64,000 nucleotides of DNA from Tubulanus polymorphus. Its lineage: Eukaryota; Animalia; Nemertea. Under the pieces are notes generated by a model. The model ran no database searches and was not told the DNA's origin. It saw only the letters and a program-made list of their open reading frames with translations. The stretch spans positions 13,317,807 through 13,381,806 of the forward strand of contig NC_134031.1 in the NCBI RefSeq assembly GCF_964204645.1, in the 5' to 3' direction. Within the stretch, counting starts at the first letter, position 1; each line of letters opens with the position of its first letter. This document shows positions 18,351 to 56,709 of the stretch, one piece after another. The translations under genes were made by a program, and so were the position numbers.

Positions 18351-18372
18351 TCAAATTTTAATAAAAAATAAA

Positions 18373-18714: not shown

Positions 18715-18728
18715 AATATGTAAAATAA

Positions 18729-19484: not shown

Positions 19485-19500
19485 TTTTGTCATTATATAA

Positions 19501-19855: not shown

Positions 19856-19858
19856 TAA

Positions 19859-21062: not shown

Positions 21063-22600
21063 ACATCGCTTCAGACGGATATAGTGTTTTATCAATCGTG
21101 ATATCGGTTCTTTCCGCTGTATTAAAATGGCAACGGTTGTCAACGAAATTATAAATGATGACGATTTTGACGATCTATTCTTTGATAGTGACGAATTGGT
21201 TCAGATCGATACGGAAATATTACGGGAATCCTCTGGATCAGGATCAACTAATTCGGCCGATTCTAGTGAGTGTTATTCCTTTTGAATCAATGAAATATCG
21301 GAATAGTTTCCACCTAATTGCAGGCAATTTATTCTTTCCTTTTCTTTTTCATATAGGTACTTCTCAGGCTCAGCTGACCAGAGACTGCGATCTGAACACG
21401 AGAAAACACACATACAGGTATTTTTTACATTTATTTTTATAATCAATACAATCCTTTTAGGTTATAAAATAATAAACGAATACAGAAAATAATATATAAA
21501 CATAATATAAAAAATCCAGATAAGTACATGTTAAAATAATAATCATTATTATTATTTTCGCAGGAACACTATATATTTGGAAAAGGCTATGACTGAAGTG
21601 ATTAACCATCGAGTATTTAAATTCAGTTCAAATGGAATGGCAGCAGTACATTATGGAAAATCGATCGATAAAATTTTGACTACAAATACGTCGCCGTCCA
21701 GACTTGGAATTAACCAGTGGTTTACAAAAATTCAAGATACATTATGTTCCGCCATTCACATAAGCACTGCGAAAGATTTGGATAAAATGTGGGCAAAGTT
21801 TCATGTTGTGATAGTCACAGGGACAGTTTTTTTTAACGTTTTTGTTCTTACGCCATTTTTGTAATTTGACACGACACATATTACAGATATATATCGGGTA
21901 TTTTTATCATCATCAAAATCAATGTTGAACAACTCCTTCACATGGCTTTTGAAATTATTTTTATCGATAGGACGACGATCCGGAGGTTTCGCATTTTTTC
22001 CACACAATCGACAAAGATCCATGACTAAAAACAAGAAAAGGTTAATTAAATGAGATTGCTGATGCTATTTAGGCAACTTGGTTTATATGGGGGACAATAA
22101 TTTGTAGGCCTTATTAAGTAACATTATCATGTAGTAAATACACATTTTAAAGATCATACTTCGTGTATATGTTTGTGTCGTAACATAGCAACATGACGTC
22201 AGAAACGAAAGCTGCGCGAGTCTGGGCCGAAATATTTGACATCTTCAAGGCCCAAATGACGCTAAACCCGGAATCGGAACGAACTGGCAAAAACATATGT
22301 TTAACACATAAAAACAGACTTTAATCACAATATAAATACTTAATGTTCCGATTCCGGGTTTCGGAGATATAGAAGAATAAAAATACATACCTTTTTGGAC
22401 AAATTTTACGAGAAATTGTTGAATTTCAACCGATTTTCTAAAGAAAAATATGTGTATACACAGCCACTTCCACGTGGTTCAATGAACTGCAGTGCGCATG
22501 CGTAGTATCGATCGCAGAACATTTATCGGGCTAAAACTATTGCGGGTTGTTCTGCGACCGAATCCAAGTTGATGTTGACTGGTATTCAGCTGGTAACACA

Positions 22601-25235: not shown

Positions 25236-25398
25236 GTAACACACACTCGATAAGCGTAGCTTACTGCTGTTGCGGTAACCTTTGATGTACGGGCTGAATT
25301 GAATAGCCTACATCCGGCAATTAAAAGCGCCCGTATTCCATCTCATCACACTTCCCTGCTTATAAGTTTACTAATTAGTAATTTTTTTTGCTAAATAA

Positions 25399-26001
25399 AT
25401 GGATGATAATATTGATATTATTCCTCATGATATAAATAAAACTAAATTAAAAATATATTTAGAAAAACAAATATTAGAATTTGAAAGTGACTTAAAGATA
25501 AAAAAGAAAAAATATTTAAAAAGTAAAATTATATATTATTTGATTATAAGTGGTTCGGTTACAATTAGTTCTGTAATAACATTTCTAGCAATATTCAGCC
25601 CATTAACACCTTTAGCTATATCAATTGGTGTATTAGGATTAAGTTCAAGTGTTTTAACTGGTATAAGTTCAAAATTAAACATAAAAAGTAATAAAGAAAA
25701 AATTAAAACTAATATTAAAGAAATTAACAAATTAAAGAATACACTAGATTATATAATAAGTTTAAATGGCCATATAACAGTTGAAGAACAAGATAAATTA
25801 TTAAAAGATAGTTTTCCAAAAGCTTTCCAATATAATAAATCAATTAAATATAATATTCCAGCAATAGATTTTAATAAAGATATTACATATAGAAATGAAG
25901 TTTTAGATTCATTAACTAATTTAGAAATTTATGTTACTGAAACTAATAATTTTAATGCAAAGATGGAAAATATATTTCATGTCTATTTAATTAATTTTTA
26001 A
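25399..26001 (+). CDS. Two-TM membrane protein, fused by a deletion to the start of the next gene
   Basis: Homolog of 50183-50617; the stop and the intergenic TAAATG seen in C are deleted at about 25808. Confidence 0.7.
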   Translation: MDDNIDIIPHDINKTKLKIYLEKQILEFESDLKIKKKKYLKSKIIYYLIISGSVTISSVITFLAIFSPLTPLAISIGVLGLSSSVLTGISSKLNIKSNKEKIKTNIKEINKLKNTLDYIISLNGHITVEEQDKLLKDSFPKAFQYNKSIKYNIPAIDFNKDITYRNEVLDSLTNLEIYVTETNNFNAKMENIFHVYLINF

Positions 26002-26004
26002 AAA

Positions 26005-27183
26005 TTGAAAGATGAAAAACAATGGTTATTAAAATCTAATATGAAGTATTGGCAGAACCAATTAAATTTTGCTGTTTATTGTGCAACAACTGGTTGTGGA
26101 ATTAGTTGGAATGATCATTTGAATAATTCTAAATATAAATTAATTCAAAGTTTATTTAGATTTCATACATACTTTCAAATCAGAATAATATTAAATGAAT
26201 TAGAGTGCGCTTTACCAGGATCTAGATATTTTAAAGAATTAGATAATAATATTAATTTATCAAAGTTTTATAAAATTTGTAATGAATTTAATATAGATAT
26301 AAGTAATTCTGATTTTAGAACGAAAATTGGAACAATAAGATCACTTCCTTGCCCTAAAAAGATTGCAGAATATTGTGCACTTCCCATACCATCTAATAGT
26401 TTTTATAATATCAATAATAATAAATTAGGTTATGGTAAAATAGAAACTAAGGATTTAGAAACATTAAATTTCAATAAATTACCGAAATTTTATGATCATT
26501 TAAAACAAGAAAACAATAATGGTTGGGTTTATTTTATTTTAGAAAATAGTGAAGGTTTTACTAAATCAGGTATAGTAAGAATAAATCAATCTATTAGAAC
26601 TTATTTGATATGTATTTTAGGTGCGCAAGTTGAAACAAGATCCCCAATAATTGGAAATTTAAATACATCATTTGATACACAGAAACAATTCAAAGTATTA
26701 TTTGAAGATTCTATTCATAATGATAAAAATAGATCGATTCCAGAAAACATTGTAAGATATCAAAATTATTTAGATAAATCACATATTAGATTAAATTATT
26801 GTATAGGCCCTAATCTATTTATTATTTCTAATGATTTAGTATTAAAGATGGGAAACATAATTGGTTACAATAATCTAATTAAAACTGCAACAATAAATAA
26901 TTCATTTGGATTAAATGATATAAATAAAAAGATAATTACTGCTCCAAAATTAATGGAAGGTGAAAAAAATAAAAAACATATTCAATCAACAGAAACTAAA
27001 ACTAATAATATTAAATTAAATAATGATTCTAAAATAAAAGATTACAATACATCAGAAAATATTAGAACTGATAATATTCAACATGAAATAATTAAACTAA
27101 ATGATGATAATAAATCCCATGAAAATACTAAATTAGCTATAACTTGTATAGGAATTGTAATCGGAGGAATATTATATTTTTAA
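26005..27183 (+). CDS. Conserved uncharacterised Polinton protein with hydrophobic C-terminus
   Basis: YWQNQLNFAVYCATTGCG motif; homolog at 50634-51925. Confidence 0.6.
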   Translation: MKDEKQWLLKSNMKYWQNQLNFAVYCATTGCGISWNDHLNNSKYKLIQSLFRFHTYFQIRIILNELECALPGSRYFKELDNNINLSKFYKICNEFNIDISNSDFRTKIGTIRSLPCPKKIAEYCALPIPSNSFYNINNNKLGYGKIETKDLETLNFNKLPKFYDHLKQENNNGWVYFILENSEGFTKSGIVRINQSIRTYLICILGAQVETRSPIIGNLNTSFDTQKQFKVLFEDSIHNDKNRSIPENIVRYQNYLDKSHIRLNYCIGPNLFIISNDLVLKMGNIIGYNNLIKTATINNSFGLNDINKKIITAPKLMEGEKNKKHIQSTETKTNNIKLNNDSKIKDYNTSENIRTDNIQHEIIKLNDDNKSHENTKLAITCIGIVIGGILYF

Positions 27184-27205
27184 TTTTAATTTTTTTATTA
27201 TGTAA

Positions 27206-28564
27206 ATGGATGTAGAAGGTGTAGAAGATTATGAAATGGGAGAAATGGGAAATAATAATGAAGGATATATTGATGATGATTATAATGATGCAGAAACTAA
27301 TATTGATAATGATGATGAATCAGCATATAATTCTAATTTAACAGATAGTAGTTCTAAAACCATATCAACAGGTGAATTTGATAGAAGAACTAAATCGAAA
27401 ATAAATCCTGAAAATGAAGATCCATATTTAGTAAGACAAGATTTAGATTATATAGACCAAATGTATAAATTCAAACCTATATTTATTCTGGATATAATGT
27501 AAATGATAGAGGCGCTAGACTTTTAGTACAAGAATTAAAATATTTAGATGACGAATATTATTATCATTTGAATGAAGAATATTATATTGATATCTCTTAT
27601 AAAAATCAAAACAAAATATTAGCAGAATCAACTTTGGAAAAATTAGAACCAGATAGAATTAAAAAAATAAGTATTAATAATGAAATAGAAAATGTAACAC
27701 AAGAAAAAATAAAACAAAATAGAAAAATATTTAAACAAAGAATTAATGAATTATTTGAAACAATCAATAATAATTTAGAACCAGAAACAACTTCTGGTAA
27801 ACTTAAATCAAATAAAGTACCAATTGAAAAACTTTTACCAAATGGATTACTTGATGCAACAGATCAAGAATTAGAAGATTTAGATATATTTTCTGATGAA
27901 GCAATTAGAGAAATTATTAGTATAAGAAATGAAGCTGATAAAATTGCACATAATAAAAGTATAAGATATTATTGAAGTTATTGAAGAAATTGAAATTAAA
28001 AAAAATGCATATTAAGAAAAAGAAATTGAAAAATTAGAATATAATATAGAATTTCAGAAAGAAGAGAGAGATATATTATCAAAAGAATATGGTAATAATT
28101 TTAAAAGGTTAAAAGATGTTTTTAAAAGATATCTAATAAAACCAAATTCTGAAATATCATTAAAAGATAGAATAAGATTATTATTTAAGTTTGAAGGAAT
28201 CACAATTCTTTCAATTCTAACAGCTGTAACTATGGTATTCACAACAATAGGTTTAGCAATATCAAATGCTTTAAAATCTACACCTACTCCCAATAACCCG
28301 GATAAACCCCCAGATAATAATTCAATACAATATAAAGTTAAGGATTGTTTAGAAAAATTAGCAAAATATTTATGGGAACTATCTAAAAAATCTGCTGCAG
28401 AATTACCCGGAGTTATTGCATCAATTGTTGGTTTTATATTGAAATCTGCTGGGAATATTCTTAATTCTGCTGCTGAACATATTATTTTATTTTTAATTAC
28501 AGTTGTAAGTGCAATTATTTTTGGGTTAGTGAATATGATATCAAACGATATCAAGAAAAAATAA
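27206..28564 (+). pseudogene. Large acidic/coiled-coil protein with C-terminal TM segments, frameshifted
   Basis: ORFs 27206, 27568 and 28232 join through frameshifts; identical breaks at 51951-53309. Confidence 0.7.
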
Positions 28565-28614
28565 TAAAAAATAAACATAATCAAAAATAAATAATTAATT
28601 TTTTTGTTAAATAA

Positions 28615-29862
28615 ATGAGTGGGAGTTATATAAGTCCTTCTAAGATTTCTAGAATATCTAATGCTATTAAAGCAGAAAGATCACATCATATTATTACTCA
28701 TAATCCTTCAAATATTAATCCCGATGAAACTTTATATGTTAGAATCCCTAGATTAACACAAAATACTTTTTATGTTCCAAATAGTATTTATTTATCAGCT
28801 GATATAAAAATAACCGGTAATAATAATAATTATGTTGTTGATAATGTTGGAAGATATTTGATTAAAAAATTAACTATAAAGATCGGCCCAGAAACAGTTT
28901 TCTCATTAGATGATTATAATTTATTTATGCATTATAAAGATTTATGGTTAACTAAAGAAAATAGAAATAATATGATATTTCAAGGTATTCAATCGGAAAA
29001 CCAAAATAAATTAAGATCTGAAGCCAATAATGCAGTAGTAGCTAATGACGTAGATAATTTGATTAAAAAGATTTATGGAAGCAAATATAAAATTCCATTA
29101 GACTTTGAATTGATAAATAATAATGCACCTTTATATAAATACGCAATTCAAGAAGACGTTATATTCGAAATAACATTTGCTCCTGTTAATGAAATTGTAA
29201 TATCTTGCGTTGTTAAAGATATGGGTTATAAATCATCGAATATATGTTTAGAATATGATACAGTAACTGATGAAAATATTGCTAACACAATTCAAACTCA
29301 ATACAATCAAGGATTTTCATTATTATATGATTATATTGATAAATTTAAAACTGTAACTATTAATGCAAATGATGAAATAATTAATGAGAATATTAACTTC
29401 CCAAGAAGATCTATTAAAGGTATATTAATATTTTTTACCATTGCAACATATACTAATGGTGCAATAAATGTTGATAATTATTATAATCCTGAAATAACAA
29501 AAGTAGAAATAACTATCGAAGGAATAGCAAATAAAATATTTTGTCAAGGAATGAGAATGATTGATCAATGGCCAGAAATTAGAAAACATTTTATGAATGA
29601 AAAAGTAAAATCATCTGAAAATTGTAATATTAATCAAATTGATTATTATACCGGTAATAAATATGCATTATGGTTAGATTTTAGAACAACAGAGGATAAT
29701 TCATTACATGGTTCTGGAAAAAAACTACAAAACACTAAAGATGGAATACAATTATTCATGACAAAGAATAAAGGAATCAAAAATTTTAAAATGCACATTT
29801 ATATTATATCTGACGCGCAATCAGATATTGTAAATTCTCAATTAAATAGTGTTATGTATTAG
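28615..29862 (+). CDS. Putative double jelly-roll major capsid protein
   Basis: 415 aa, beta-rich, located in the structural module; NPSNINPDETLYVRIP, PRRSIKGILIFF, ALWLDFR resemble Polinton MCPs. Confidence 0.75.
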   Translation: MSGSYISPSKISRISNAIKAERSHHIITHNPSNINPDETLYVRIPRLTQNTFYVPNSIYLSADIKITGNNNNYVVDNVGRYLIKKLTIKIGPETVFSLDDYNLFMHYKDLWLTKENRNNMIFQGIQSENQNKLRSEANNAVVANDVDNLIKKIYGSKYKIPLDFELINNNAPLYKYAIQEDVIFEITFAPVNEIVISCVVKDMGYKSSNICLEYDTVTDENIANTIQTQYNQGFSLLYDYIDKFKTVTINANDEIINENINFPRRSIKGILIFFTIATYTNGAINVDNYYNPEITKVEITIEGIANKIFCQGMRMIDQWPEIRKHFMNEKVKSSENCNINQIDYYTGNKYALWLDFRTTEDNSLHGSGKKLQNTKDGIQLFMTKNKGIKNFKMHIYIISDAQSDIVNSQLNSVMY

Positions 29863-29894
29863 AATTTTAACTTTAATAAAAATTTATATAATAA

Positions 29895-30782
29895 ATGGAA
29901 GGAGGTAAAGTATATAAACATATTCCATACATCGATACACATGAAAATAATGATGGTTTATATTATGTAATACCTTGTAATATAGCTTTGATATTTGATC
30001 CTATTTTCAAAATTTATAAAACTAAACTAAAAGAAATCGATAATAATAAAAGTGGTGTTGTTGATAATTTAAGTAATGTAATTGATAATAATGCAATACC
30101 TTCTACATCTAATAATGTAATACCTTCTTCATCTAATAATGCAATACCTACTACATCTAATAATGTAATACCTACTACATCTAATAATATAATACCTTCT
30201 ACATCTAATAATGCAATAATATTAAATATTAGTGAAAATAGAAATTATTGTGATTATTGTAAAGGTGAATTTTCAAACGCTCCATCAAATTGGAATAAAC
30301 ATATGAATACAAAGGTACATATTACTAATGTAATAGAACGTGTTGGTTTAAGAGAATTGATAGAACGCCCATTTATATATGTTACAAAGTTTGTTTCAAA
30401 TAAAAAAGTAAATGGTAAAGAATTATATGAAGATTTATTATTAGCAACACCTAATAAAGATGAATTAGATTTAACCGATGCTAATAAAATATTAGGATCA
30501 AACATTGTAAATGAAATATTAGGAGCAAACACTAATAAAGATAATAATGAAAATATAGTTACAGATATTGATAATAAAGATTCTATGAAACCTAAAGTAG
30601 AAAATAATGATAAATTTGATTGGATGAAAAAGCATAACAATGAAACAACTATTGATGATTCAGTAAAAAGGGTGAAGAATAAGTATAAAAATAATTCAAC
30701 TATTGATGTAGATTCGGTAGAGCATTTGAATATATTGCTAGGGCCTGATAGTGAATTGGAGAGTGATGATGAAAGTATTTAA
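29895..30782 (+). CDS. Hypothetical protein with 8-aa repeats and one Zn finger
   Basis: 24-bp tandem repeat (NNAIPSTS-like, about 5 copies, 30087-30218); CDYC...H...H finger; acidic tail. Confidence 0.65.
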   Translation: MEGGKVYKHIPYIDTHENNDGLYYVIPCNIALIFDPIFKIYKTKLKEIDNNKSGVVDNLSNVIDNNAIPSTSNNVIPSSSNNAIPTTSNNVIPTTSNNIIPSTSNNAIILNISENRNYCDYCKGEFSNAPSNWNKHMNTKVHITNVIERVGLRELIERPFIYVTKFVSNKKVNGKELYEDLLLATPNKDELDLTDANKILGSNIVNEILGANTNKDNNENIVTDIDNKDSMKPKVENNDKFDWMKKHNNETTIDDSVKRVKNKYKNNSTIDVDSVEHLNILLGPDSELESDDESI

Positions 30783-31319
30783 GATATTAAATATATTTAA
30801 CTCAAATTATAATATTGGTTGAAAATCGTATAAAATAATAGTAAATAAAAAAGGGGGTTTTAAGTATTTAAGGTATTTAAGGTATCTAATACATATCTAA
30901 TACAATCTAATACAATCTAATACATAAAATATCTTATTTTATAAACTTATATTCATATGGAAATTGAAACCTCAGTAATAATAAATAACCTTTATCATTT
31001 TCAAACTTATTCATATATTAGTTGAAAAAAATAAAAATAAATTGGTTGAAAATTGTATAAATAATATTTATTTTAAAAAAGGGGGTTTTAAGTATTCAAG
31101 GTATCTAATCGGGTATCAGGTATTAGGGTATCTAATAGGGTATCTAATACATAGGTATATTTTAAACATATTTCAATATTTATATTTGTATGAGTTAGAT
31201 TTTTAAACATTAAAAGTTTTAGTAAAGTTTTATTGAAATAATTCATATATATATATTCATGAATAACATATAAATGAATAACTTCTAAAATCAATTTAGT
31301 AAAAAAATATGTATAATAA

Positions 31320-31871
31320 ATGGAACCAGAACAACCGCAAAGTATTAATATTACAAATAACGCTGGTGTTATAAACATATACTACAAGAAGTGTTCTAAA
31401 TGTGAATTAGATAAATTAGCTTTAACAGAATTTAGTAAGCGTAAGATTAGCAAAGATGGTTTTCAATATTGCTGTGAAACTTGCACTAAACTATATACCA
31501 AACAATATCGAGAAGATAATATAGAACATTATAATTATTATATGACAGAATATATGAGAGACAGATATCAAACAGATCTTAATTTTAGATTGAAACAATG
31601 CTTAAGATCTAGATTAACACAATTATTCAACAAAGAAACGCATTCAGAAACACTATCTAATTTATTGGGTTGTTCAGATGAATTTTTCATATCATGGATA
31701 ATATATCAATTCGATGATAAAATGAATATAGATAATTATGGTGAATACTTTCATATTGATCATGTGTTGCCGATTTCTAAATTTAACATGAGTGATGATT
31801 ACAATAAGAAGCTAATATGGAGCTGGAGAAATTTAAAACCTTTAGAAAAGAAGGAAAACAATAAAATCTAA
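31320..31871 (+). CDS. HNH endonuclease of the giant-virus type, possibly C-terminally frameshifted
   Basis: CSKC...CETC, RSRL, LLGCS, NYGEYFHIDHVLP, NLKPL..KEN. Confidence 0.75.
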   Translation: MEPEQPQSINITNNAGVINIYYKKCSKCELDKLALTEFSKRKISKDGFQYCCETCTKLYTKQYREDNIEHYNYYMTEYMRDRYQTDLNFRLKQCLRSRLTQLFNKETHSETLSNLLGCSDEFFISWIIYQFDDKMNIDNYGEYFHIDHVLPISKFNMSDDYNKKLIWSWRNLKPLEKKENNKI

Positions 31872-33119
31872 TAAACTAGATTTACAGTTATATTTAGATC
31901 AACTGGATAAAGCAAAGACATTTGTTGAATTATGGAACTCAACACATAATGAAAAATACGTTGAAGCTTATGCGCTTAGAAAACCGGTTACTCTCGATCT
32001 ATGTCAAACCGCCTATATGTAATTGTATTAGGTTGTTTACAAAAACATCTGTGCCACATTTTATATTCAGTTGAATGGGGTGTATCTCATTTGAATATTG
32101 ATCGAATGTGCTATTTCAGTTGAAAAGGATTAATCAATTACATTACAAAGAACATCTGTTGCTCAGACAGTGTTTAGCTAGTGAATAACTGGCAGTTATA
32201 AGCGCACAACACATAAGCATAGGAACGCATAGGATATTCTCTCTATAAACACAATTTTAGGAGTTTACAGTTATAAATGTAAGTACTTTTTTGTTGTTAT
32301 TAAGGCGTCGGGAAACGTTAAACATGTAAAACTTATCCTGGTAAGATGCGCCACAAATGGTTATGTTTAAGTGCTGTAATTAATATTTTACCACTACAAC
32401 TTCAAGTTAGTTTTATTCTACGCTAGATATTTATCTTTTAGATAACAAAATGAAGGCCATTGAATCAAGAAAGTGAAGATAGGAGGATGTGGAATCAGAA
32501 ATAATGGATATTTCAACTCGATGAGACTGTAGCAGTTTAGCCTTACTGTATAGGCTTTCAATGCATTACGTTTGCCGGAATTTCAATTGCGTCATTAAGC
32601 TGTTGTTAATGAAACACAGTGACAGATGTTCTATTATACTTTATTGATTCCTGCATTCCACGCATACCTTACCGGGCCTGAAATGAGCGGCTTGGAATGT
32701 TGAAATCGATACTGACTGTAGAATAAAATATATGTGTTTATGAAATAGTATTTCCACCAGTCGTTTCTTTGAATTTATTTTCAGTTTTAGGATTTATTAT
32801 CGAGAATCCGAAATGACTTATCTGGACAGTTATAATTACTGCTCCTAATAGATAGACAATAGTAGTGAGATATTAAATCCTAATTTAAATAAAATATAAT
32901 AAAAAAACAATAACTTCAACTAGCTAGTGAATTCTATTATATTTTTTATATTTTCTTTTCAAAAAGAGAATACTTTATATTTTGAATAGATTCAAATAGA
33001 AATTCTTTAAATTCAAATAGCTAGTATCAGTAGTCAATACTAGAATTCTTTAACTTTAACTATCTTGTATCATTTTATAATACTTATAATATTTTTCTTA
33101 TTAAATTTCTCTAATATAA

Positions 33120-33722
33120 ATGTCAAAGAAATCGAGTAAGGATAGTATTGATATTGAAAAAACATTAGATGATTTGGGTATTTGTGATAATAAGGATCCA
33201 GTTGTTTCTAATTCTATTCAAGTTAATAACAATATTGATTATGAATACTACTTATATTGTAAACACCATCTTGAATTACTAATTGCTAGCGGAAAGTGTA
33301 AAGAGTTTTTAACTAAGATCATTACTTTTCAAGAATTAGATGCTATGAAACCAGATAAAGTAATAAAACATTTTAAGATTTATGAAGAGTCAAGATTAGC
33401 TAGAATAAATGATTCTATTTCAGATGGTAATGTCAAATGTTATTCTAAGTTATGTAACCAGTTAATACCAATTGATGATGAAAATAAATTATATAGTGAT
33501 TTGAAAAATGACTACTTAGTTATGACTGAATTACAAAAATGGGTTGGTTATGCTTCATTTCAATTAGGATCGGTTATGATATTAATTTCTACTGGCGTCA
33601 TAACATTTTCGAATATCAAGCCTATGGAATATAAATCAGGTAAGAACGAAACAGATGTACTACAACCAAACGTCGAAACAGAAAATGAATCAGAACAAAA
33701 ATTAACTAAAATAAATGAGTGA
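33120..33722 (+). CDS. Conserved hypothetical Polinton protein (homolog of 57004)
   Basis: TAAATG start; clear similarity to 57004-57609. Confidence 0.65.
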   Translation: MSKKSSKDSIDIEKTLDDLGICDNKDPVVSNSIQVNNNIDYEYYLYCKHHLELLIASGKCKEFLTKIITFQELDAMKPDKVIKHFKIYEESRLARINDSISDGNVKCYSKLCNQLIPIDDENKLYSDLKNDYLVMTELQKWVGYASFQLGSVMILISTGVITFSNIKPMEYKSGKNETDVLQPNVETENESEQKLTKINE

Positions 33723-34083
33723 TGGCGTTAAGAAAAAGCCTAGATCCGAGAAACAAATTAAATGGGCAAGAGAATTAGGTAAAAGATCTGCAGAATTAAA
33801 AAAAGCTAAGAAAAAGAAATTAACTGATATAAATGAATCACAGACTTTATCTGATATTGATTCAAATAATAATCCATCTGATTCTTCTAATGCTGGAAGT
33901 AATTATAAATTATATATAACAATTGGATTAGTAACAGTTATTATATTATCCGGTGTAATATATAAATCAAAATTCAAATCTGATGATAAAGATGATTCCA
34001 ATGATAATAAACCTATCATACCAGAAAATAAGTCAAATCATAAAGTCATTGAAACTAAATCTAAATTATTATTAATGGATTAA
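33715..34083 (+). CDS. Small basic single-TM protein (homolog of 57542)
   Basis: RSEKQIKWARELG motif, one hydrophobic segment. Confidence 0.6.
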   Translation: MSDGVKKKPRSEKQIKWARELGKRSAELKKAKKKKLTDINESQTLSDIDSNNNPSDSSNAGSNYKLYITIGLVTVIILSGVIYKSKFKSDDKDDSNDNKPIIPENKSNHKVIETKSKLLLMD

Positions 34084-34089
34084 AATAAG

Positions 34090-35180
34090 ATGAAAAAAGA
34101 ACAATATTTAAGAGAGTTATATTATAACCCAGAAAGTGAAGTATCATATTCTAACGTTTCAGAATTATGGAATAAAATTAAATCTGATAATGAAAATGGT
34201 AATATAAAATATAGTGAATTGAAATCATGGTTACAAAATCAACCAACATATCAAATACACAAGAAAATGGATAAAACTTATTTAACAAGAAAAGTTATGG
34301 TTTCATATATCGATCAACAATGGCAAGCAGATTTAATTGACATGAAGAACTTAGAAGAATACAATAAAGAATATTTCTGGATATTAAATATTATAGATAT
34401 ATTCAGTAGATACGCATGGTCAATTCCAATCAAAAATAAAACTGGTATAGAAGTGACAAATGCTTTTAAATCAATATTTAAAGAAGTTATTCCATATAAG
34501 ATACAATTTGATGAAGGTAAGGAATTTTATAATAAACATTTTAAAAAACTATTATCTGATAACGATGTAGATTATTTTTCAACACACTCAAATAAAAAGG
34601 CATCTATTATAGAAAGATTTAATAAAACATTGAAAACTAGAATGTGGAAATACTTTACTGCTAATGAAACATATAACTATATCGATGTGTTAGATGATTT
34701 AGTGAAAGGTTATAATAATTCTAAACATAGTTCTATAAATATGAAACCTATACAAGCTAGAAAAGAATATAATTCAGAAATAGTTTGGAATAATTTATAT
34801 GGCGCGTTTGTTACACATGATTTCGGAGAACCTAAATTTAAAATTGGACAACACGTTAGAATATCTAAATATAGAAAAACCTTTTATAAACGTTATACCC
34901 CTAATTTTACTGAAGAAATATTTAAATTAAAAAGACAATATTAACTAAACCTTTTGTTTATAAATTAGAAGATTTAAAAGATGAAGAAATATTAGGTTAT
35001 TTCTATGAACAAGAATTATCACTTGTACCAAATCCAGATGAAATAGAATACAAAATAGAAAAAGTATTGAAAACAAAAACTCTTAAAGGAAAAAAGTATT
35101 CTTTGGTGAAATATAAAGGATATGATGATAAATTTAATGAATGGATTTTATCTAGTAAAATTAAAAGAATAAATGAATAA
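34090..35180 (+). pseudogene. Retroviral-like (rve) integrase with C-terminal chromodomain
   Basis: WQADLIDM, IDIFSRYAW, FDEGKEF, IERFNKTLK; frameshift near 34930, then IEKVLK..VKYKGY..FNEW. Confidence 0.92.
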
Positions 35181-35784
35181 AGATTTATTTATATTTGAAC
35201 CGCATAATATGTTAGTTACTGGGGTAACCAACTGTGGTAAAACATATTTCATATTAGACTTGTTAGAAACTATTTATAAGAATCATTTTGATAATATAAT
35301 ATTATTCTGTCCTACTTATGAAATGAATAAAACATATAATAGAGATATAGTTAAGATAAAAAAGTTTATTATATTAGATCCTAAAACAGTAAAAGAAAAT
35401 TTAGATAATTGTATAAAAATAGCAATTGATACTTATAAAGGATCAAATACATTATTCATTGTAGATGATTGCGCAAATTTACATGATTCAAAAGTTAGAG
35501 AAAGTGAGTTATGCTATTTAGCTTTCTCTGGGAGACATTTCGGGATAACAACATGGGTTTTAAATCAAAAATATAATTCAATTGTTAAAGACTTTAGGGA
35601 GAATATAAGATTTCTAGTTTTATTTTATAAGAAAGATAAAAAATCTATGAAACAATCATTGGAAGAAAATCAAATTATACCTACTGAATTACATGATGAA
35701 TATATGAATAAATTAAGAAATAATAAAGGTTCAAAATTATTACTGAGATTACAATTTCCCTATGAATATAAATTTATAAAATAA
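35173..35784 (+). CDS. A32/FtsK-like genome packaging ATPase
   Basis: Walker A GVTNCGKT, Walker B FIVDD, GRH...Q motif. Confidence 0.9.
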   Translation: MNKDLFIFEPHNMLVTGVTNCGKTYFILDLLETIYKNHFDNIILFCPTYEMNKTYNRDIVKIKKFIILDPKTVKENLDNCIKIAIDTYKGSNTLFIVDDCANLHDSKVRESELCYLAFSGRHFGITTWVLNQKYNSIVKDFRENIRFLVLFYKKDKKSMKQSLEENQIIPTELHDEYMNKLRNNKGSKLLLRLQFPYEYKFIK

Positions 35785-35789
35785 CTATT

Positions 35790-36035
35790 TATATATCTAT
35801 ATATCTATTCTATAAGAGCTTACACTTTTATATTGAATAATCTGTCAATTTAAATGTTATTCATGTATATGAATATTTTAAGAGTAATAGGGGTAATAGG
35901 CTTTCATATCAAAGGTTGAAGGGGCGAGTGAGTAAAAAATAAAAAATAAATTCGAGTGTGCGAGAATTTATTTTTTATTTTTTTACTTTCTCGACCTCTC
36001 GACCTTTGGTATGAAAGCCTATTACCCCTATTACT
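35790..36035 (-). repeat. Right TIR of Polinton B (hairpin 35883-36035)
   Basis: Inverted match to 13988-14225. Confidence 0.9.
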
Positions 36036-38480: not shown

Positions 38481-38569
38481 GATAGGAATTCGCACCTATC
38501 CAAGAACCTGCTTCTTCGGATGGGCACCCACAAACTGACATAGCATTAGTCGCACATTTAGAAAAAAAT

Positions 38570-40090
38570 GTCACCGACGTTTACGTCACAGGACAACGTG
38601 TAGGTGCACTGGTAGATAGTGGAGCTAATATAAGCTCCGTATCTAGATCATTTCTAGCCAAGACTAAATTTGCTGATTCAAAATTAGGTACTAGTCATGT
38701 AAAACAAGTCGTCGGTGTAGGTGGTACTGTCATTCCAGTTGCAGGTACAATTGAACTCCCCCTTATATTTCCGGGCGTTCATGACCTAATATATTTCAAA
38801 TTCCACGTATTTGAACGATTACATCACAATTTGATCATAGGCATTGATTTCATGAAAGCCAAAAATGCAACTTTAGACTTTGCAAATAGATGTTTCAAAC
38901 TCGAAGACGTTACGGATAAAAACGAAGTTCATGTCCTACCAATAACCATCGAAGGCCCAGTAGCGTATTCGATCTCTTCAGTAAAACTGGAGCCTCAATC
39001 AGAAACCGATATTCCGTTCACTATACCTAAACATCTAAACAATACGGTCATACATCTAAACAATACGGTCATATTACTATCACCTCTCCCGGGGCTGACT
39101 CAGAATAATTTCACCGGAGCTCGCTGTCTAGTTAGAGTAGAAAAAGGTACTGCTCGTATGAGGCTTATTAATCCAACAAAGAAAACTATCTCTGTTCCAA
39201 GACATACTGCAATCGCGTCAATGGCTTCATTAGACGATACCTCTTCTATTATATCTCTCGATGAGTCCTCTGAAACCTTGGTAGCAACAATGGCCACGGC
39301 TCAGCACGATACAGGACATGTCGCCAGACATGGTCCGAAACCCGAAGCCCCGCCTGTGGAGGATATTAACTTTGACTTGTCCGAATCGGATCTAACAGAT
39401 GGCCAAAAAGAACAGCTTAGTCAATTTCTGCATCACTATCGTGACAGATTTTCGACCAATTTGTACGAACTAGGTCATACAAATATGCAGCAGCACAAAA
39501 TAGATACAGGCAATAACCCACCCGTGTGTAGCGCACCGTACCGCCAACCACCCCACATTCGCAAGGAGCAAGACCGCCAGATTGATGAAATGCTTAAAAC
39601 AGATATCATTACTCAGTCAAACTCACCCTTTACTTCACCAGTGGTGATGGTTAAGAAGAAAAATGGCGAATACAGATTTGCCGTAGATTACCGTGCCTTA
39701 AATCGCATCACTAAGACCACTTCTTATCCCTTACCGAAACTTGCCGATGTCGTCGATTCCATAGGTGAGTCACGAGCTTGCAGACAGTCACAACTCTAGA
39801 CATGACCTCGGGATTCTGGCAGATCAAATTAGATCCTGAAAGCCTCAAATTAGACCCTTTCCGTTAACAAACATTCCGTCTAATAAAAAGCCTCCTAAGG
39901 TAGATGACCAATTTCACGATATTGCTAAAATTCTACGTCTGCGATACTTTGACGGTAACCGACAGTTCTACGTCAAATGGGCAGATGGGTCCCCACCGTC
40001 TTGGGTAAGAGATGCTGATTTAACGGAGGCAGCAAAAATTGAGTATATCCGGACTAACACCCTCAGTGGAAAAGCGAGGAAAAGAATGAC
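38570..40090 (+). pseudogene. pol: Gypsy pol remnant: aspartic protease, RT N-terminus, large deletion, chromo-like tail
   Basis: ALVDSGA, IIGIDF, SPVVMVKKK, RFAVDYRALN, DMTSGFWQI, then a jump to FYVKWADG. Confidence 0.8.
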
Positions 40091-40281
40091 TTGCTTTAAG
40101 AGGTCGTACTTTTCACGACTGTCATCGCGAGTTCTTTCATTTTAACGCTTAGGACCTTGGACCACATAGCTCATAAGGAATTCAAAGAATTTAAACTGTG
40201 CTTTGGGGTCTGATCAACCTCATGAAACCTTCATTCCTAAGTCACTGCTTGTCTAACCCGCGTGTTTCTTTCTTAGGTGTC

Positions 40282-41384
40282 ATGGTTAAATCCTTACTCG
40301 TGATGATGGTTCTCACTCTCTTCTTTCAAAAGAGTTCCGGTCTCCAGCAACCTCTGAATTATGGTGTCCTATTCAATCACTTGGGTCAGGTGGGTCAAAG
40401 TAATGAATACTGGCTGCACACATTTGCATTCTCACTACCGACGCAGCTTAATCTAGCCACTTTTTGTGACCGCCCTGGTGACGACCCCACCTGTATACTT
40501 CGTAAGAAAATGGCTTTGCATCTCAATGAACTGCAAACAACACTCAATAGTCATATTAACCACGTGACGGATATTGTTACTGAGTTGATCCCTGTCAAAC
40601 TCAAGCGCACCACCAAATCTAGGAGCCGCCGCGCGGCAGTGCTCGGTTTCATTGGGCAATTGTCACGCACACTTTTTGGCACAGCTACTTTACACGACGT
40701 TGAGGTCCTCACCCAACACATCAAATGCACTTACGCGTCGCTCGAACGTCATGGTCCGCTCATTTTAACGACACGGGGCACATTTGTCATCGTATGTAAG
40801 TTTTCTACGCGAACTGATAACGCTTTTAGGGGCATTGCTTCGAACCACAGAGCTATTTCTGATCTTTTTACGAGGGTACAAACTTCTACCAATGAGATGC
40901 TGCGTACTTCCGTTGAAATGGATATAACTTGTACGCTGATTACGTGGAATCTAGTCGGCAAGCTGAACTGCAACTCTTAGAACTAAAACAGACTGTTATA
41001 CGAATTGCTACGAGGCAATTTGTCACCTACCCTCATCTCTAAAGATACCCTTAAAGATTCGATTTTTCAGATTAAGGCTATCTTATAAACAAAATACCAT
41101 GGTTTCACGTTGTCACATCTCGATCCAAATTATTATTTTGACCACGCCAAGTTAATAGCTTCTCGAAATGGATCCACCATCTACGTTTCCATCAAATTTC
41201 CAATGACATCGTTTGAGGCCAACCTAGATATCTATACTTTGATGTCCTTCCCGGTCCCTGTGAACGAATCTTCCTTACATTTGACACAACTACTCGATTT
41301 GCCATCATATTTCGTAGTACTACTCCTCTTTATCGGTATCAGAATTTCAGGCGTGTAATATAATTGCCGACACCTATCAATGTC
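40282..41384 (+). pseudogene. env: Envelope glycoprotein, N-terminal part (class I fusogen-like)
   Basis: Signal-peptide-like start, furin site RSRR followed by hydrophobic AAVLGFIGQLSRTLFGTA; pyrimidine tract + AG just upstream. Confidence 0.75.
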
Positions 41385-41950
41385 AGTAATTAGAAGATGG
41401 CGTTTTCAAACCAGAGTACGAGAGTACGAGCTCGTAAAAATGAAAAACATGAAAATAATAGCAATTTTTACCTGAATTAGTAGCGAAACTCATAAAAATG
41501 AACATTATTTACATGAACTTCATATATTTTAAAATCATTTATATGTTAATTATAAAAGTAATGAGTAATTAACGAGTTGATTAAAATTAGATTTTTAAAC
41601 ATAAAAGTGTGAGTAAAGTGTGAGTGAAATAACTCATTTAATACCAGACGAGACACCCGTCATCACAGCTAGGCGCTAGTGAGAACGGACGATTGCTCTG
41701 TGATACACATATACAGTTAGTGCGCGTAACAACAACTGCGCGTGGATAGATCGATACAGTGAGTCGCTACTGAGAACGGTTATTAACGCGTGTGCGATTA
41801 CTGTAGTACAGTGATTGCGTGTCAACTGTGCTCGGATAAATAGATGCTGTGAGGCTTGGGTGAGAACGGTTAATAGCGTGCTTGTTATATACAAGGGGAA
41901 GTAATCCCCACTCATCACCACAAGTAATTTTTTTTCCTTATAAATGGGGG
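41385..41950 (+). repeat. Left TIR of Polinton C with a ~245-bp insert
   Basis: Inverted match to 58373-58684 except 41667-41911. Confidence 0.88.
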
Positions 41951-44900
41951 AGAATGAACACCAGCCAGAAAACAATAATGTTAATAAAAATCAATATTAT
42001 TGTCCATATTGTAAAAAATACATCGATAAATCTAATAAATCTAAACATGAAAAATCTTCAAATCATATAAAAAATGTTATAGATTTTGAAACTTCAGAAA
42101 ATTCCAATGAAAGAAAATAACGATTAGAAAATATGAATGTGGATGTGATAAAATGTGAAGTTTGTAATGAATTTATAGTAAAAAGGAATTATAATAGACA
42201 TCTCGAATCACAAAAACACCATCAAAATTTGAGTAATAATGTTTTAGGAAAAGATTATTCCTCAACAAGTAAAAAAACCAACTTCAAAAACTAAATCCAT
42301 TTCAAATAAACCCTACATGGAAAATGTTAGAAATTATATCGATACTCTTGAAATAAAAGATACAATTGAAATTTTAGAAACATTACATAGTAAAATTGGT
42401 CCTGCAGCTATTATATTTAGATTTTTTAAAGGTACAACAATAGAAGATTATAGTAAATTTAATGAAATAATAGAAAAAATACTAGATTTGATAACAGATG
42501 TTGAATATCCAAAAATTAGTATCTTTGGGAAAGTAAGTTTTATAAAGTCAGAAGAAAAAATGGATTATAATATTCAAACACTCTCTGAAGAAATAATTTC
42601 AAAAACACAAATAAAAGAGAAGTTAGAAAAAATGTTTAATGAATTTAAACGTCATATTGAAGAAAGATATTTTGAGGGTTCTGGTTTATCTTTAAATGAA
42701 ATTATGTATTTAGACTTAAATGTTTATAATACAAAAAGAAATAAAACATCAAAAAGTAATAAAATGTTTAAAAATGATACAAACTTTATAACAGAAAAGG
42801 ATATTGAAGCATCATCTTATATTAAATTACCATTTACAACAAAAGCACTAATAAATGTTCAAAATGAAGATAATAAATGTTTTCTATGGTCAATTATTAG
42901 TTGCTTACACCCAACAGAAGATATTAAGCATAGATTTAGAATAACAAATTACCGGAAATACGAAACATTATATAAAATTGATCAATATCCAGTAACTATA
43001 AAAATGATACCCAAAATGGAAAAAGTTAATAATTTAAAAATTATGTATTCGGATAAATGCAATTACCAAAGACAAAAGGCGAAAATATTAAAGATTATAC
43101 ATTGGAAGCTTTATATTTAACAGAATATTATGATGATGAAAATGCTATAGATTTGTTATATTACAAAAAAGATGAAAATGAACATTATATGTGGTTAAAA
43201 CAAATTGATTTATTCTTTAGAACAGAAAGTGATTTTAACAGTCATAAAATGTATCTATGTAGAAAATGTTTATCTAAATTTAGAACTGAGAATGCGTTAC
43301 TAAAACAAAAAGAATTATGTGATAATAAAGATTTTTGTAAATTAATATTGCCAACAGGAAAAGATTATAAATTGAAATTTACTAATCATAAATTTAAGAA
43401 TATTGTTCCATTTGTAATTTATGGGGATTTTGAATCGTTGAATAAAGAATTAACTGATCAAGATAGAAAAGAAATATATAACAAAAAGCAATTTATTAAA
43501 ATCAATGGATAAAGGAAATGAATTAAATGAAGACACAACACAAGACCCGCCAATTATAAATACAATTTAAAAAGTTCATCAAAGAGCTGCTGCTTATGGA
43601 ATTTACATAAAATCAAATTATCCTGAATTATATCAAAGTCAATATATTTCTTTTAGAGGTGAAGATGTAGTTAATAATTTTTGTAACAAAATAATTGAAT
43701 TAGAAAATGATTTTGCAAAATTATTAAACAAAAATAAAAGAATAGTTATGACAAAAGAAGATGAAGTTGATTTTAATTACTCAACTCATTGTTGTTATTG
43801 TGAAAAACGTTTTTATTCATTTGATAAAAAAGTTAGAGATCATAATCATTTAAATTCAAAATATCGTGGAGCTGCTCATGAAGATTGTAATTTACAAGCT
43901 AAGAAAGTTAATTTCGTACCAATATTATTTCATAATTTATCAGGCTATGATACCCATCTATTTATAAAACAATTATCGGGAAATTGGGTGCAATTAATCA
44001 AGAAATAGAAGAATATAATGCTATGAATGGTGTAAATGTAAGAAAATATGATTTTAAACTATTGGCTAAATCATCTGAAAATTATATTTCATTTCAATTC
44101 GGTTGGATTAGATTTTTAGATTCTTATAGATTTCTAGCAAGTTCATTAGATAATTTATCAAAAAGTTTAGTTGATAATGATTTTGTTATAACTCGATATT
44201 ATTATCCAAATGAACAAGATTTTAAATTATTGAGATATAAAGGCGCAATTCCTTATTCATTTTATAAAACACATGATGATTTTAATGTAACAAAATTATT
44301 AAAAGATCAATTTTATGATCAATTAAAAGAGGGGAATGTGAAAGATGAAGTGTTTAATAGAACATTAAATATTTGGAACCATTTTAAGATGAAAAATCAT
44401 GGTAAATTAGTTGATTTTTATTTAAAATCAGATGTTATGATATTGGCTGACATATTTGAAAAATTAAGAGAAGTTAATTTGAATCATTTTAATGTTGATC
44501 CTTGTTATTGCTACTCTAGTCCCGGTTTAACCTGGCAATGTGGTTTAAACTACACAAATGTAGAATTAGATTTATTAAAAGAACCAGACATGGTTTTATT
44601 ATTTGAAAAATCAATTAGAGGTGGAATTAGTGGTGTTATGGGAGATAGGTATTTTAAAGCAAATGATGAATATAAATTATTATATATTGACGCTAATAAT
44701 TTATATGGTTGGGCAATGATGCAACCTCAACCATACAAAATTTTTATACTAACAGAAGTTGAAAATGATGATAAAACTGATTGGGAAAGCGCAATTGCGA
44801 GTTTAAAAGATGAAGCACCAATTGGTTATTTCTTTGTAGTTGATTTAGAATATCCTGAAAATATAAAGTTTAAAACAAGAAACTTACCTTATTGCCCAGA

Positions 44901-46991
44901 ACATTTAACTGTAGATGATAGTTATTTAAGTGAATACCAGTAGAAAATAAAACCGAAAGATCATGTTTTTACAGAAAAATTAATACTTACTCAAAATAAT
45001 AAATACAATTATATCGTTCATTATAGAATGTTAAAATTTTATCTAAAACAAGGAATGAAATTAAAGAAAGTACAAAGATATATTGAATTTAATCAATCGA
45101 AGTGGTTAGAAAAATATATATATTTCAATACTCAACAGAGAACCATATCAAAAACAGATTTTGAAAAAGATTTCTTCAAATTAATGAATAATAGTTTTTA
45201 TGGTAAAACATGTGAAAAGTAGTAAATAATTCTGAAAGATTAAGACATTTACAATCAAGTCCTAGACATTTAGGAAATAAAAGATTTGAAGATTATTTAA
45301 CATTAGTTAAATTAAAAAGAACGTCAATGAAATAAACCTATATTCCTAATAAACCTATATTCATTGGTTCAACTGTTTTAGAAGTATCAAAATTATTAAT
45401 GTATAATTTTTATTATAATGTTTTACAACCACTTTTTGGGGAAAAACATATAGAAATCTTATATTTTGATTCTGTTACAGCTGACACCCCAATATTATTA
45501 AAATGTAATGATAAAATATTGATAAGAAGAATTTCAGAAATAATTCCAAAACAAAATGAATGTTATATTTCGTATGGTGAAAAAGAATTAATACAAATAA
45601 ATGAATTAATGGATGTTTGGACAAGAAATGGATGGAAAAGATTAAAGAATATTATTAGGCATAAAACAAATAGGAAAATCTATAGAGTTAGAACTAAATT
45701 AGGGTTTGTAGATGTTACAGAAGATCATAGTTTAATTAGACGAAATGGCGATGAAATTAAACCAATTGATATAAAAATTGGAGATGAATTATTACATAAA
45801 AGATTTTTCCAAAGAATGAATCATATGTCATTCGACGAAATTATTAATAATATTTATAATAGAGAACCTGAAACATTAGAAGAAAAAGAATATTTTATTA
45901 AAGGATTTTTTATGGGTGGTGGTTCAGCAGGTGTGTATAATTATGTTTGGGGTAATAAATATTGTTGGTATTTATGCAATCAAGACTTGAAATTATTAGA
46001 AAGAATTAAGAAATTCTGTGAAGAAGTTTATTCACATAAAACGTTTAGAATCATGGATGTTATGAAATCATCAGCAGTTTATAGAATACTTGTAAATAAT
46101 CCTAAAGATTTTGCTATAAAATATAATGATGAATTCTATATTCATGCAATAGTGAAAAGTAATACTTCAACTAAAGAAAAGATAGTTCAAGATTATGTAT
46201 TAAATGCAAAAAATAATTTAAGAAAATGGTTCTTCATTGGGTTCTATGCTGCAGATGGTTCAAAAAGTTTCAAAAACCGCAAAACAATATCTTTAGCTCA
46301 AAATGGAAAAGTTGCTATATCAGGATTGAATATATTATGCAGTTCATTAGGTTTTAATATGAATATTGGATTGATTAAATCTTAACCAAATTGCTTTAAT
46401 TTAAGCCATGAAGAAAATGAGTTAAAAGAAGAAGTTTAAGATTTATTTGAAATATATAACCCAACAGATTATGTTTATGATTTATCAATTGAAGATGGTA
46501 CATTTAACTGTGGATTTCCATTAATAGCGGTCAATACGGATGCGTACATACTAAAAATCAAGACAAATGATATAAAAAAAGACTTAAAAACATTAAAACA
46601 TCATTTTGATTTTAGCAATTATCCCAAAGATCATGAACTATTTAGCAATGATTATAAAAAGATTCCTTGTAAATTTAAAGATGAATTAGGGGGTGATGAA
46701 ATGATTGAATTTGTTGGGATAAGAAGTAAAATGTATAGTTACAGAACAAAAGATCATGAAGCTAAAAAATTAAAAGGAGTAACAAAACATGTAGTTGATA
46801 AACACATAGAATTTCAAGATTATATAAAGTGTTTATATAACTCAATTGTAATGAAACATAAAATGAATTGTTTAAGATCAGAAGATCACGAGACATACAT
46901 TAATGAAGTTGAAAAAACTAGTTTAAATCCATTTGATGATAAAAGACATATTTCAGATGATGGTATAAAAACATTACCTTATGGTTATTAA
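41944..46991 (+). pseudogene. pPolB with intein (Polinton C), many stops/frameshifts
   Basis: Collinear with 6350-1415; same motifs. Confidence 0.93.
45471..46535 (+). other. Intein with LAGLIDADG endonuclease, 355 codons, two in-frame stops
   Basis: YFD/SVTADTP...DVTEDHSL...GFFMGGGS...GFYAADGS...YVYDLS...IAVN/TDAY; 1065 nt; stops at 46383 and 46437. Confidence 0.93.
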
Positions 46992-54564: not shown

Positions 54565-56101
54565 ATGGTTGGTAAAAAAACTCCTAATACTAAAGAACAA
54601 TATTTAAGAAATTCATATTACAACCCTGAGAGTTCGGTTGCTTATTCTTCTACCAAAAATATATGGCGTCAAGTAAAACAAGATAAATTATATAAGATAA
54701 TCCCACAAAATTTAGTTAAATATAAAGATATAAATGATATATGTTAGAACAACCGACGTATACAACACATAAAAAAATTGTTAGAAAATATAAAACTCGT
54801 AAAACTATGGTAAGTTATGTAGATCAACAGTGGCAAGGAGATTTAATTGATATGAAAAATGTTAAGAAAGATAATGATGATTATTGGTGGATATTGAATA
54901 TAATTGATATTTTTAGTCGTTATGTATGGAGTTTCCCACTTTATAGAAAAGATGCTGTACAAACATCAAATGTTTTAAGAAAATTTCTTTCGGATGATAA
55001 ACTAAAACCAGAAAAAATACAATTTGCTGATGGAAAATAATTTGATAATCCACTTGTTCATGAACTCTTAGACAATCATAATATTAAATATTTTTCAACA
55101 AAATCGGATAAAAAAGCAGCAGTTGTTGAACGATTTAATACAACATTAAGAAGAAGAATGTGGAAATATTTTACAGCAAATAATACTTTTAAATGGATGA
55201 TGTTTTGATGTTTTACCAAAATTGATAGAAGGATATAATAATTCTTATCATTCTTCTATTGGAATGAAACCTATTGATGCTAGAAAACCTGAAAATGCTG
55301 AAATTGTTTGGAATAATTTATATGGAGCATTTCTCGTAGATGATTTTGGTGAACCTAAATTTAAAGTTGGTCAAAATGTTAGAATTTCTAAGTATAAAAA
55401 GATCACGATAGGTAGAACACAATATCCGTGTTGACGCGATGAGGAGAGAATCCCACAATGATAATAAAAAGTCCGAAAATGAAACTTCGAGATAATAGTT
55501 TATTTCAACGTTTCGACTATATCCTAATAGTCATCTTCAGGAATACTGAGATACTACAGAAATTATGAGATATATATACAATCCAGAGACAAAGAGACTA
55601 ATTCAAGTAATCAGAGATGATACAAACTAAAGGAAAATTAACGTAGAAACAGTTACACGCTAAAATAGATTAAAGGGAAGCAAACTACCCCGATTTCCTA
55701 TTGAAAAAAGCTCTACTTAAAGCTCGTACTACGCAGTTTTACTCTCGAAGTTTTATTTTCGGACTTTTTATTATCATTGTGGGATTCTCTCCTCGTATAA
55801 AAAGATATTTGATAAGGGATACGATCGAAATTTTACTAGAGAAATATATAAAATAAAAAAGGTAATAACAACAAAACCATATGTCTATAAATTAGAAGAT
55901 TTAAATGGTGAAGAAGTTGATGGGTATTTTTATGAAGAAGAATTGAGTTTAACTACTGAAAATCTAGAACAAGAATATGAAATTGAAAAAGTATTAAAAA
56001 CAAAAACTGTTAAAAGAAAAAAATATTCTTTAGTAAAATGGGTTGGATGGCCAGATAAATTCAATGAATGGATATTATCAAGTAAAATTGAAAATATATA
56101 A
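54565..56101 (+). pseudogene. rve integrase with chromodomain, disrupted and interrupted
   Basis: WQGDLIDM, IDIFSRY, VERFN, VKWVGW; insertion at 55404-55794. Confidence 0.88.
55404..55794 (-). mobile_element. Short Penelope-like insertion with inverted repeats
   Basis: 12-bp TSD GTATAAAAAGAT (55392-55403, 55795-55806); about 52-bp inverted repeats at 55441-55492 and 55743-55794; hammerhead-like core. Confidence 0.7.
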
Positions 56102-56709
56102 ATTAATAAGGAATTATTTATATTTGAGCCTCATAATATGTTAATTTCTGGTGTAACAAATTGTGGAAAAACTTATTTTATATTAAATTTATTAGAAACT
56201 GTTTATAAAAACTATTTTGATAATATAGTATTATTTTGTCCAACATATGATTTTAATCAAACTTATGATAGAAATATTACTAAAAATAATAAATTTATTA
56301 TATTAGATCCTATAACAGTAAAAGAAAAATTAGATAATTGTATTAAAATAGCAATTGATGTTTATAAAGGATCAAATACATTATTCATTATAGATGATTG
56401 CACAAATTTACATGATTCAAAATTTGAGAGAGTGAGTTATGTTATTTAGCTTTTTCTGGTAGACATTTTAGGATAACAACTTGGGTTTTAAATCAAAAAT
56501 ATAATTCAATCGTTAAAGATTTTAGAGAAAACATTCGATTTTTAGTTTTATTCTACAATAAAGATAGAAAATCGATGAAAAATGCGCTTGAGGAAAATGA
56601 TATTATTCCGCATGATTTACATAATGAATATATGGACAAATTGAAAAATAATAAAAGATCAAAATTACTATTTAGATTACAACACCCATTTAAATATGAA
56701 TTTATTTAA
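56102..56709 (+). pseudogene. A32/FtsK-like packaging ATPase
   Basis: GVTNCGKT, FIIDD; start mutated, frameshift near 56425. Confidence 0.88.

Follow-up and report, generated by a model that had tools for sequence, protein, structure and literature searches.

The locus studied here raises the question of whether a protein-splicing, homing element can reside in the chromosomes of an animal and, if so, by what route it came there. Inteins are absent from metazoan genomes according to the available part of a review (PMC8529194), and a eukaryote-wide survey, in the portion of its text consulted, restricts its list to fungi, algae and giant viruses, iridoviruses included (PMC5784728). A preliminary description of the window, that is, of the whole 64,000-nt stretch of DNA that was analysed, had nevertheless pointed to an intein in the catalytic motif of a protein-primed DNA polymerase (pPolB) of a Polinton, and had called inteins essentially unreported in animal nuclear genes; this last statement agrees with the review, and no counter-report was found in the literature searched. 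On the basis of the results below, we consider it probable (roughly 0.8) that the insertion is a pol-c homing intein in the Polinton polymerase of a likely animal genome, with splicing predicted, homing likely and a single, old entry probable.

The intein and the elements that carry it were assigned as follows:

45471..46535, plus strand: predicted intein of 355 codons, comprising Hint N-part, LAGLIDADG endonuclease and Hint C-part (HMMs, AlphaFold model, motif table)
45471..45806, plus strand: predicted Hint N-terminal region with blocks A and B (TIGR01445 over residues 2-88; beta-rich model)
45894..46370, plus strand: predicted two-motif LAGLIDADG homing endonuclease (LAGLIDADG_3, structural matches, motif table)
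41944..46991, plus strand: family-A pPolB hosting the intein, broken by a stop and frame changes, with motif C split YFD / TD (PF03175 in the sister copy)
2801 to 1871, minus strand: second copy of the intein, 931 nt long with two internal deletions, carried by a sister family-A Polinton
1415..6350, minus strand: sister family-A pPolB; the N-extein reads as 1183 uninterrupted codons before the insertion site (PF03175)
14366..18350, plus strand: intein-free family-B pPolB (empty site) sharing ~73% identity with family A (sequence comparison)
13988..36035, plus strand: family-B Polinton encoding capsid protein, integrase and ATPase, with other transposons nested in it (TIR and TSD)
28615..29862, plus strand: candidate double jelly-roll (DJR) major capsid protein (415-residue frame; low-confidence model, pLDDT 56)
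54592..56705, plus strand: degenerate counterparts, in the intein-bearing element, of the integrase and the A32-like ATPase (DNA match to 34096-35777)

The focal insertion occupies 1065 nt in frame between ...HIEILYFD and TDAYIL... of the family-A pPolB. Its boundaries could be read directly because an intein-free allele sits in the third Polinton of the window, the family-B pPolB of which runs uninterrupted through YFD-TDS (HIEILYFD-TDSYIL) at 17819-17820. The site is likewise empty in 105 of 118 further pPolB hits that were scored. Reading frame and empty allele thus bear out the earlier claim of 355 codons inserted exactly between YFD and TD, and the second copy that had been noted at 1871-2801 is present on the minus strand. 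The insertion follows the first Asp of PolB motif C and lies ahead of TD, which is the pol-c position; Mimivirus and archaeal PolBs have YGD-TDS at the same place, as given in the available text of PMC549080. The residues expected at such a site were also found where they had been described: Ser1, a block B TEDH at residues 83-86, N355 as the last residue and Thr at +1, together with VYD in block F. Both LAGLIDADG motifs could be located (motif 1 near 45894-45923, motif 2 near 46227-46259), but the first is damaged at its metal-binding position in the focal copy; the two are intact in the 8 other pPolB inteins.

For domain searches, the focal intein was translated with X at its two stops. The check for Hint and LAGLIDADG domains that had been proposed gave TIGR01445 (intein_Nterm) at 29 bits against a cut-off of 24.5 over residues 2-88 and LAGLIDADG_3 at 25 bits against 22.5 (Pfam/NCBIfam), with Intein_splicing (PF14890, E 4.5e-8) slightly below threshold at 33.5 bits, 2.3 short of its cut-off of 35.8. 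An AlphaFold model built from 40 sequences reached a pLDDT of 93 and a pTM of 0.92. The top Foldseek matches of this model in the PDB were all endonuclease-bearing inteins (intein homing endonuclease II, PI-PfuI and PI-SceI, with the best E value, 3.7e-18, for TliVMA), and I-DmoI and PI-type structures were among the matches for the endonuclease part. In BFVD, the best named viral structural matches were PolBs of a phycodnavirus, Pandoravirus, Marseillevirus and Megavirus. The penultimate His is absent from both window copies (Val in the focal one, Phe in the second) and was found in only 77 of 177 full-length relatives, being missing in the other 100; judging from these sequences, it appears not to be required in this intein family. 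Taken as sequence and model, 45471-46535 is identified as a Hint plus LAGLIDADG intein at the pol-c site, of class 1 by its residues.

The carriers have the gene set of Polintons: pPolB, rve integrase, A32-like ATPase and a DJR capsid protein, the last from a low-confidence model (pLDDT 56) for which every listed PDB match was a DJR capsid protein. The rve and Pox_A32 matches fall on the family-B copies of the integrase and ATPase, and the capsid homolog of the intein-bearing element lies at 53360-54568. No Pfam match to an adenovirus-type maturation protease or a minor capsid protein was obtained among the 23 frames scanned, sub-cut-off weak Pfam matches on small Polinton frames were dismissed, and no tRNA gene was found in the window. 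The family-B frame at 31320-31871 has a Cys-rich start and an HIDH motif, no Pfam match and a homolog in locus L002; we take it to resemble an HNH-type nuclease. The capsid-region genes of families B and A (26490-29898 and 51235-54568) are 93-98% identical, against only ~73% for the polymerases, a contrast that points to exchange of modules between the two Polinton families.

Whether these elements belong to a nuclear genome, and to that of an animal, was addressed through their ends, their neighbours and independent reads. Two transposons of the window are relevant here:

22592..25236, plus strand: FLYWCH-MULE transposon nested in the family-B Polinton, with target duplication (domain match, reads)
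38486..41666, plus strand: Ty3/gypsy element that lies immediately upstream of the intein-bearing Polinton and has an F-type env-like frame (Baculo_F E 0.0014, below cut-off)

The TIRs of the family-B Polinton are 93.8% identical across 274 nt, and its 6-bp target duplication matches at 5 of 6 bases; for the intein-bearing elements, both ends were located in neither. Its terminal repeats at 13988-14133 and 35882-36036 are themselves palindromic over ~150 nt. The insertions nested in it at 20502-25357 and 22592-25236 are flanked by 8-9 bp target duplications, and reads of the corresponding empty sites occur in run X5, sequenced from the genomic library of a second study that gives the same species label. 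Reads of this run covered all 30 bins of both stretches, with Polinton, intein and flanking transposons included, at a depth of ~130-330x for the intein, 570-680x for the family-B polymerase, ~50x for the Ty3/gypsy and FLYWCH-MULE elements and 11-15x in the lowest bins. Since its depth is ~10-20x that of the lowest bins, the intein belongs to this same genome in multiple copies. Chromosomal integration of the Polintons is seen from the TIR and TSD and from the nested transposons with duplications of their own, and the read coverage of run X5 agrees with it.

No cellular gene occurs within the window, so the argument for an animal host rests on the types of transposon. The FLYWCH-MULE atlas clusters were all eukaryotic, most commonly from Arthropoda, with an oomycete in the MULE-only row, and FLYWCH domains are 'seen primarily in animals' according to the part of PMC1702500 available. 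The env-like Ty3/gypsy frame was only weakly recognized in the atlas; elements with F-type env are described as widespread across metazoans in the available text of PMC13524379, whose survey covered invertebrates only. On these two neighbours, the host is very probably an animal, as had been supposed. The lack of a cellular gene would also suit a genuine intein and Polinton in a protist, a fungus or a contaminant of an animal assembly; Polintons and MULEs occur outside animals too, and the available text of PMC10710043 records endogenised viral PolB inteins in algae and a labyrinthulomycete. This possibility is set against a FLYWCH-MULE nested within the Polinton itself, a Ty3/gypsy element of a metazoan-wide type, and a genomic library from a second study, under the same species label, that covers Polinton, intein and transposons together, and we consider it improbable, although it survives better than any of the alternatives discussed below.

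With a probable animal as the host, the next question is whether the intein has functioned there. Both window copies are broken: the focal one carries in-frame stops at codons 305 and 323, and the N-extein of its polymerase one stop and frame changes. The read table suggests that these two intein stops are not shared by most other genomic copies. Between the two window copies, a single pair, dN/dS was 0.19 for the whole intein, 0.09 and 0.16 for the endonuclease, and 0.09-0.23 across the endonuclease and Hint N-part. The values of 0.09 and 0.16 argue that purifying selection kept the endonuclease. For the same two elements, dS was 0.27 in the intein versus 0.09 in the exteins, so the two inteins appear to have had a separate history longer than that of their host genes.

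The damage in both window copies could alternatively mean that the intein is a passenger which neither splices nor homes, the filled Polintons being copied in trans by the polymerases of empty elements; empty family-B elements, ~3x deeper in the reads than the intein, would be potential helpers. However, Ser1, TEDH, VYD and the terminal Asn are retained in 9 of 9 aligned pPolB inteins, the dN/dS values just given extend over endonuclease and Hint N-part, and 7 of the 15 listed members of one related Polinton cluster (P0027) are full-length intein-bearing open frames, with 6 of these 7 inteins 98-99.7% alike. An inert passenger is therefore very unlikely.

The distribution of the intein among Polintons was patchy. 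It was present in only 3 of the 120 best pPolB hits (105 were empty, one of them called on a mis-picked site, and 12 were without a callable site) and in 1 of 80 metagenome loci, 59 being empty and 20 uncalled. On an N-extein tree of 40 rows, the 6 intein carriers require 6 changes, and constraining them to one clade was rejected (p-AU 9.8e-102). The nearest polymerase to that of the window, P0462 (86%), is empty. P0030 and the focal element share only 17.5% identity in the polymerase against 57% in the Hint part. Filled and empty alleles may also be nearly identical: P0451 (filled) and P0454 (empty) agree at 571 of 573 positions in the N-extein and at 169 of 169 in the C-extein, and a comparison of 12 of the 136 members of the P0027 cluster put the identity between filled and empty polymerases mostly at 97-98%.

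In the P0027 cluster, all 10 columns that separate 7 filled from 5 empty members fall within -6 to +44 of the site. Upstream, the filled flank agrees with P0228 at 7/7 positions versus 3/7 for its own empty alleles; downstream, it agrees with P0029, from another clade, at 11/12 versus 8/12, and at positions -60 to -8 its own family is matched at 53/53. By this comparison, a co-converted flank from another Polinton family travels with the intein. Patchy spread, flank co-conversion and purifying selection together give the signature of homing, and the present-day spread is likely to have proceeded from Polinton to Polinton. Two further observations were set aside. The DNA identity of 90-93% between families A and B over the 60 nt upstream of the site, versus ~78%, was not read as co-conversion, the protein being conserved there, and reads that skip the intein exactly do not show an empty family-A allele, for they carry family-B-like letters. 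The empty alleles P0440, P0442-P0444, P0446 and P0447 of the P0027 cluster display at least three site sequences (LHYTD-CDS, CQYFD-TDA and YHYGD-TDA); escape from the endonuclease is one possible explanation of this variability.

A pPolB intein of ancestral age, inherited vertically and precisely lost many times, might also yield a patchy pattern, for the change counts are blind to gain versus loss, and the focal intein and that of P0026, which are sisters in the intein tree, have hosts in the same larger pPolB clade. It accords poorly with an intein found in so few of the 120 hits and 80 loci, with an intein dS above the extein dS in the same two elements and with a close intein in the 17.5%-identical polymerase P0030; the foreign flank that moves with the intein strongly disfavours it. 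We thus regard vertical inheritance as highly improbable and continue with homing between Polintons.

As to the source of the intein, the closest relatives were inteins in other Polinton pPolBs, with 45-64% identity: 61% for P0026 and 45-47% for P0027, P0028, P0029, P0030 and P0031, while partial ones reach up to 71%. PF03175 and intein domains occur together in the long open frames P0026, P0027 and P0030; these and P0451 are intact intein-bearing pPolBs. Inteins of RNA-primed PolBs come next, at no more than 39% identity over the full length; giant-virus MAG contigs carry relatives of the nearest of these PolBs, but some near ones are T4-like phage polymerases. On viral contigs, identity stayed at or below 39% in the best 80 of 422 confirmed matches. 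None of the best 85 viral/prokaryotic loci bears a pPolB, and 84 of them carry the intein at YGD-TDS; viral contigs scanned with P0026 and P0003 yielded no relative, and the phage collection gave one weak match of 27%. Of 225 extracted inteins, 184 are at YGD-TDS and a few in topoisomerase II.

In a FastTree of 177 inteins, 9 pPolB inteins were joined at 0.94 and nested, under midpoint rooting, among RNA-primed PolB inteins, and an IQ-TREE analysis (LG+G4, 40 rows, with 12 rows of long branches and near-duplicates omitted) separated 7 pPolB inteins from 33 others with a group support of 100/100; these trees are without outgroup rooting and without named archaeal or Mimivirus pol-c reference sequences. 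When three long-branch phage-type rows were included in a quick mixture-model tree, the support of the group was only 67, and in a Hint-only FastTree four such rows were nested inside it, so single entry and donor are not firm. One entry into pPolBs followed by spread among Polintons is nonetheless likely on the trees. The proposal that the intein had come from an RNA-primed viral PolB stands in part: the nearest non-Polinton relatives are such inteins, many of them on giant-virus contigs, but a direct or recent move does not follow, as the Polinton inteins are closer (45-64% versus at most 39% in the best 80 of 422 confirmed matches) and form one group. The idea that this Polinton family took up the intein recently and directly from a co-infecting giant virus, for which only the shared site and family with giant-virus PolB inteins speak, can on the same identities and grouping be practically discounted.

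Several further observations concern the family at large. Ahead of its intein, near residue 1183, P0026 has YGD as in giant-virus PolBs, a Gly shared by only 2 of the aligned empty pPolBs; this could be a relic of the donor flank. The same intein family was found at D-TDG in type II topoisomerases (P0078, P0083, P0089, P0093, P0094, P0096, P0097, P0110 and P0127) and at GGD-TD of the ADP-ribosylglycohydrolase P0045, suggesting that it jumped between unrelated genes that share D-T-D. P0033 has tandem inteins at motif C of one PolB, the second beginning two residues past the end of the first. Related PolB inteins at YGD-TDS with 28-34% identity (L219-L223) lie on contigs filed in archaeal and bacterial MAGs, which may be viral contigs binned with them.

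These results can be assembled into a tentative course of events. Class 1 splicing proceeds by an acyl shift at Ser1, transfer to Thr+1 and cyclisation of Asn. By this chemistry, splicing through Ser1, Thr+1 and Asn would restore the catalytic D-T-D of the pPolB, and intact splicing would be selected at each copying of the element because the polymerase would be dead without it. Empty YxD-TD sites in other Polintons that share the nucleus would be cut by the endonuclease; in their repair on the filled template, the intein would be carried over with ~7 codons upstream and 12-45 codons downstream. According to the trees, the family probably made a single, ancient entry into pPolBs, its source being an RNA-primed PolB in a large DNA virus, with a giant virus a more likely donor than a phage. 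This first crossing may have been aided by shared motif-C DNA: compared with the family-B empty site over its 18-bp core, 39 giant-virus empty sites agree on average at 11.4/18 positions and 59 other Polinton sites at 11.1/18, and the best Polinton-giant virus pairs reach 16/18. The crossing is plausible, since the Polinton core is as close to giant-virus as to Polinton sites. Overall, it seems fairly likely, with less assurance than for the intein itself, that functional homing inteins have become established in animal chromosomes through Polinton polymerases, by one crossing from RNA-primed to protein-primed polymerases followed by spread across families and hosts, target escape and a need of splicing for replication.

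Compared with known systems, the intein resembles the pol-c inteins of Mimivirus, phycodnavirus, other giant-virus and archaeal PolBs in its motif-C position, in Ser1, Asn and Thr+1 and in the combination of Hint and LAGLIDADG, as these are described in the available parts of PMC549080 and PMC5784728. It differs in that its host protein is the protein-primed PolB of an integrating Polinton, that it belongs to an intein group of its own and that it is multi-copy in a probable animal nucleus. Homing-type nucleases within Polinton polymerases are themselves known, as HNH or VSR insertions in pPolBs (PMC10748475); these are described there as nuclease domains only, whereas the present insertion is a complete Hint and LAGLIDADG intein that splits the catalytic motif. 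The available text of PMC10748475 does not use the word intein, and that of PMC11071308, which cites it, suggests 'intein invasions' as the source of the nuclease insertions in pPolBs. The endogenised viral polymerases of Klebsormidium, Tetrabaena and a labyrinthulomycete likewise place a viral polymerase intein on nuclear scaffolds, going by the part of PMC10710043 available; unlike these viral-like PolBs of algae and a protist, the carrier here is a Polinton present in many copies in a probable animal, with signs that homing continues among them. Invertebrate iridoviruses provide a further parallel, as intein-bearing DNA viruses that replicate in animal cells (PMC5784728, in the text available), but they are free viruses and the present elements are chromosomally integrated. 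The word intein is absent from PMC8502044, and inteins are mentioned in general terms only in the accessible parts of PMC12220804, PMC5718144 and PMC3671162. In the literature searched, with supplements and subscription journals outside its scope, neither a pPolB nor an animal genome was reported to contain a Hint-domain intein; a pol-c homing intein in the Polinton pPolBs of a probable animal genome has thus apparently been unreported so far.

If a homing intein does reside in the multi-copy Polintons of this probable animal, it would be an exception to the absence of inteins from metazoans stated in the available part of PMC8529194 and, within the literature searched, the first intein found in a protein-primed PolB. 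It would also be evidence that genes pass between large DNA viruses and Polintons in cells that they share, and the dozens of copies within one genome would offer a natural system for reading homing, target escape and co-conversion. If the reading is true, protein splicing would be required for the replication of endogenous Polintons in animal cells.
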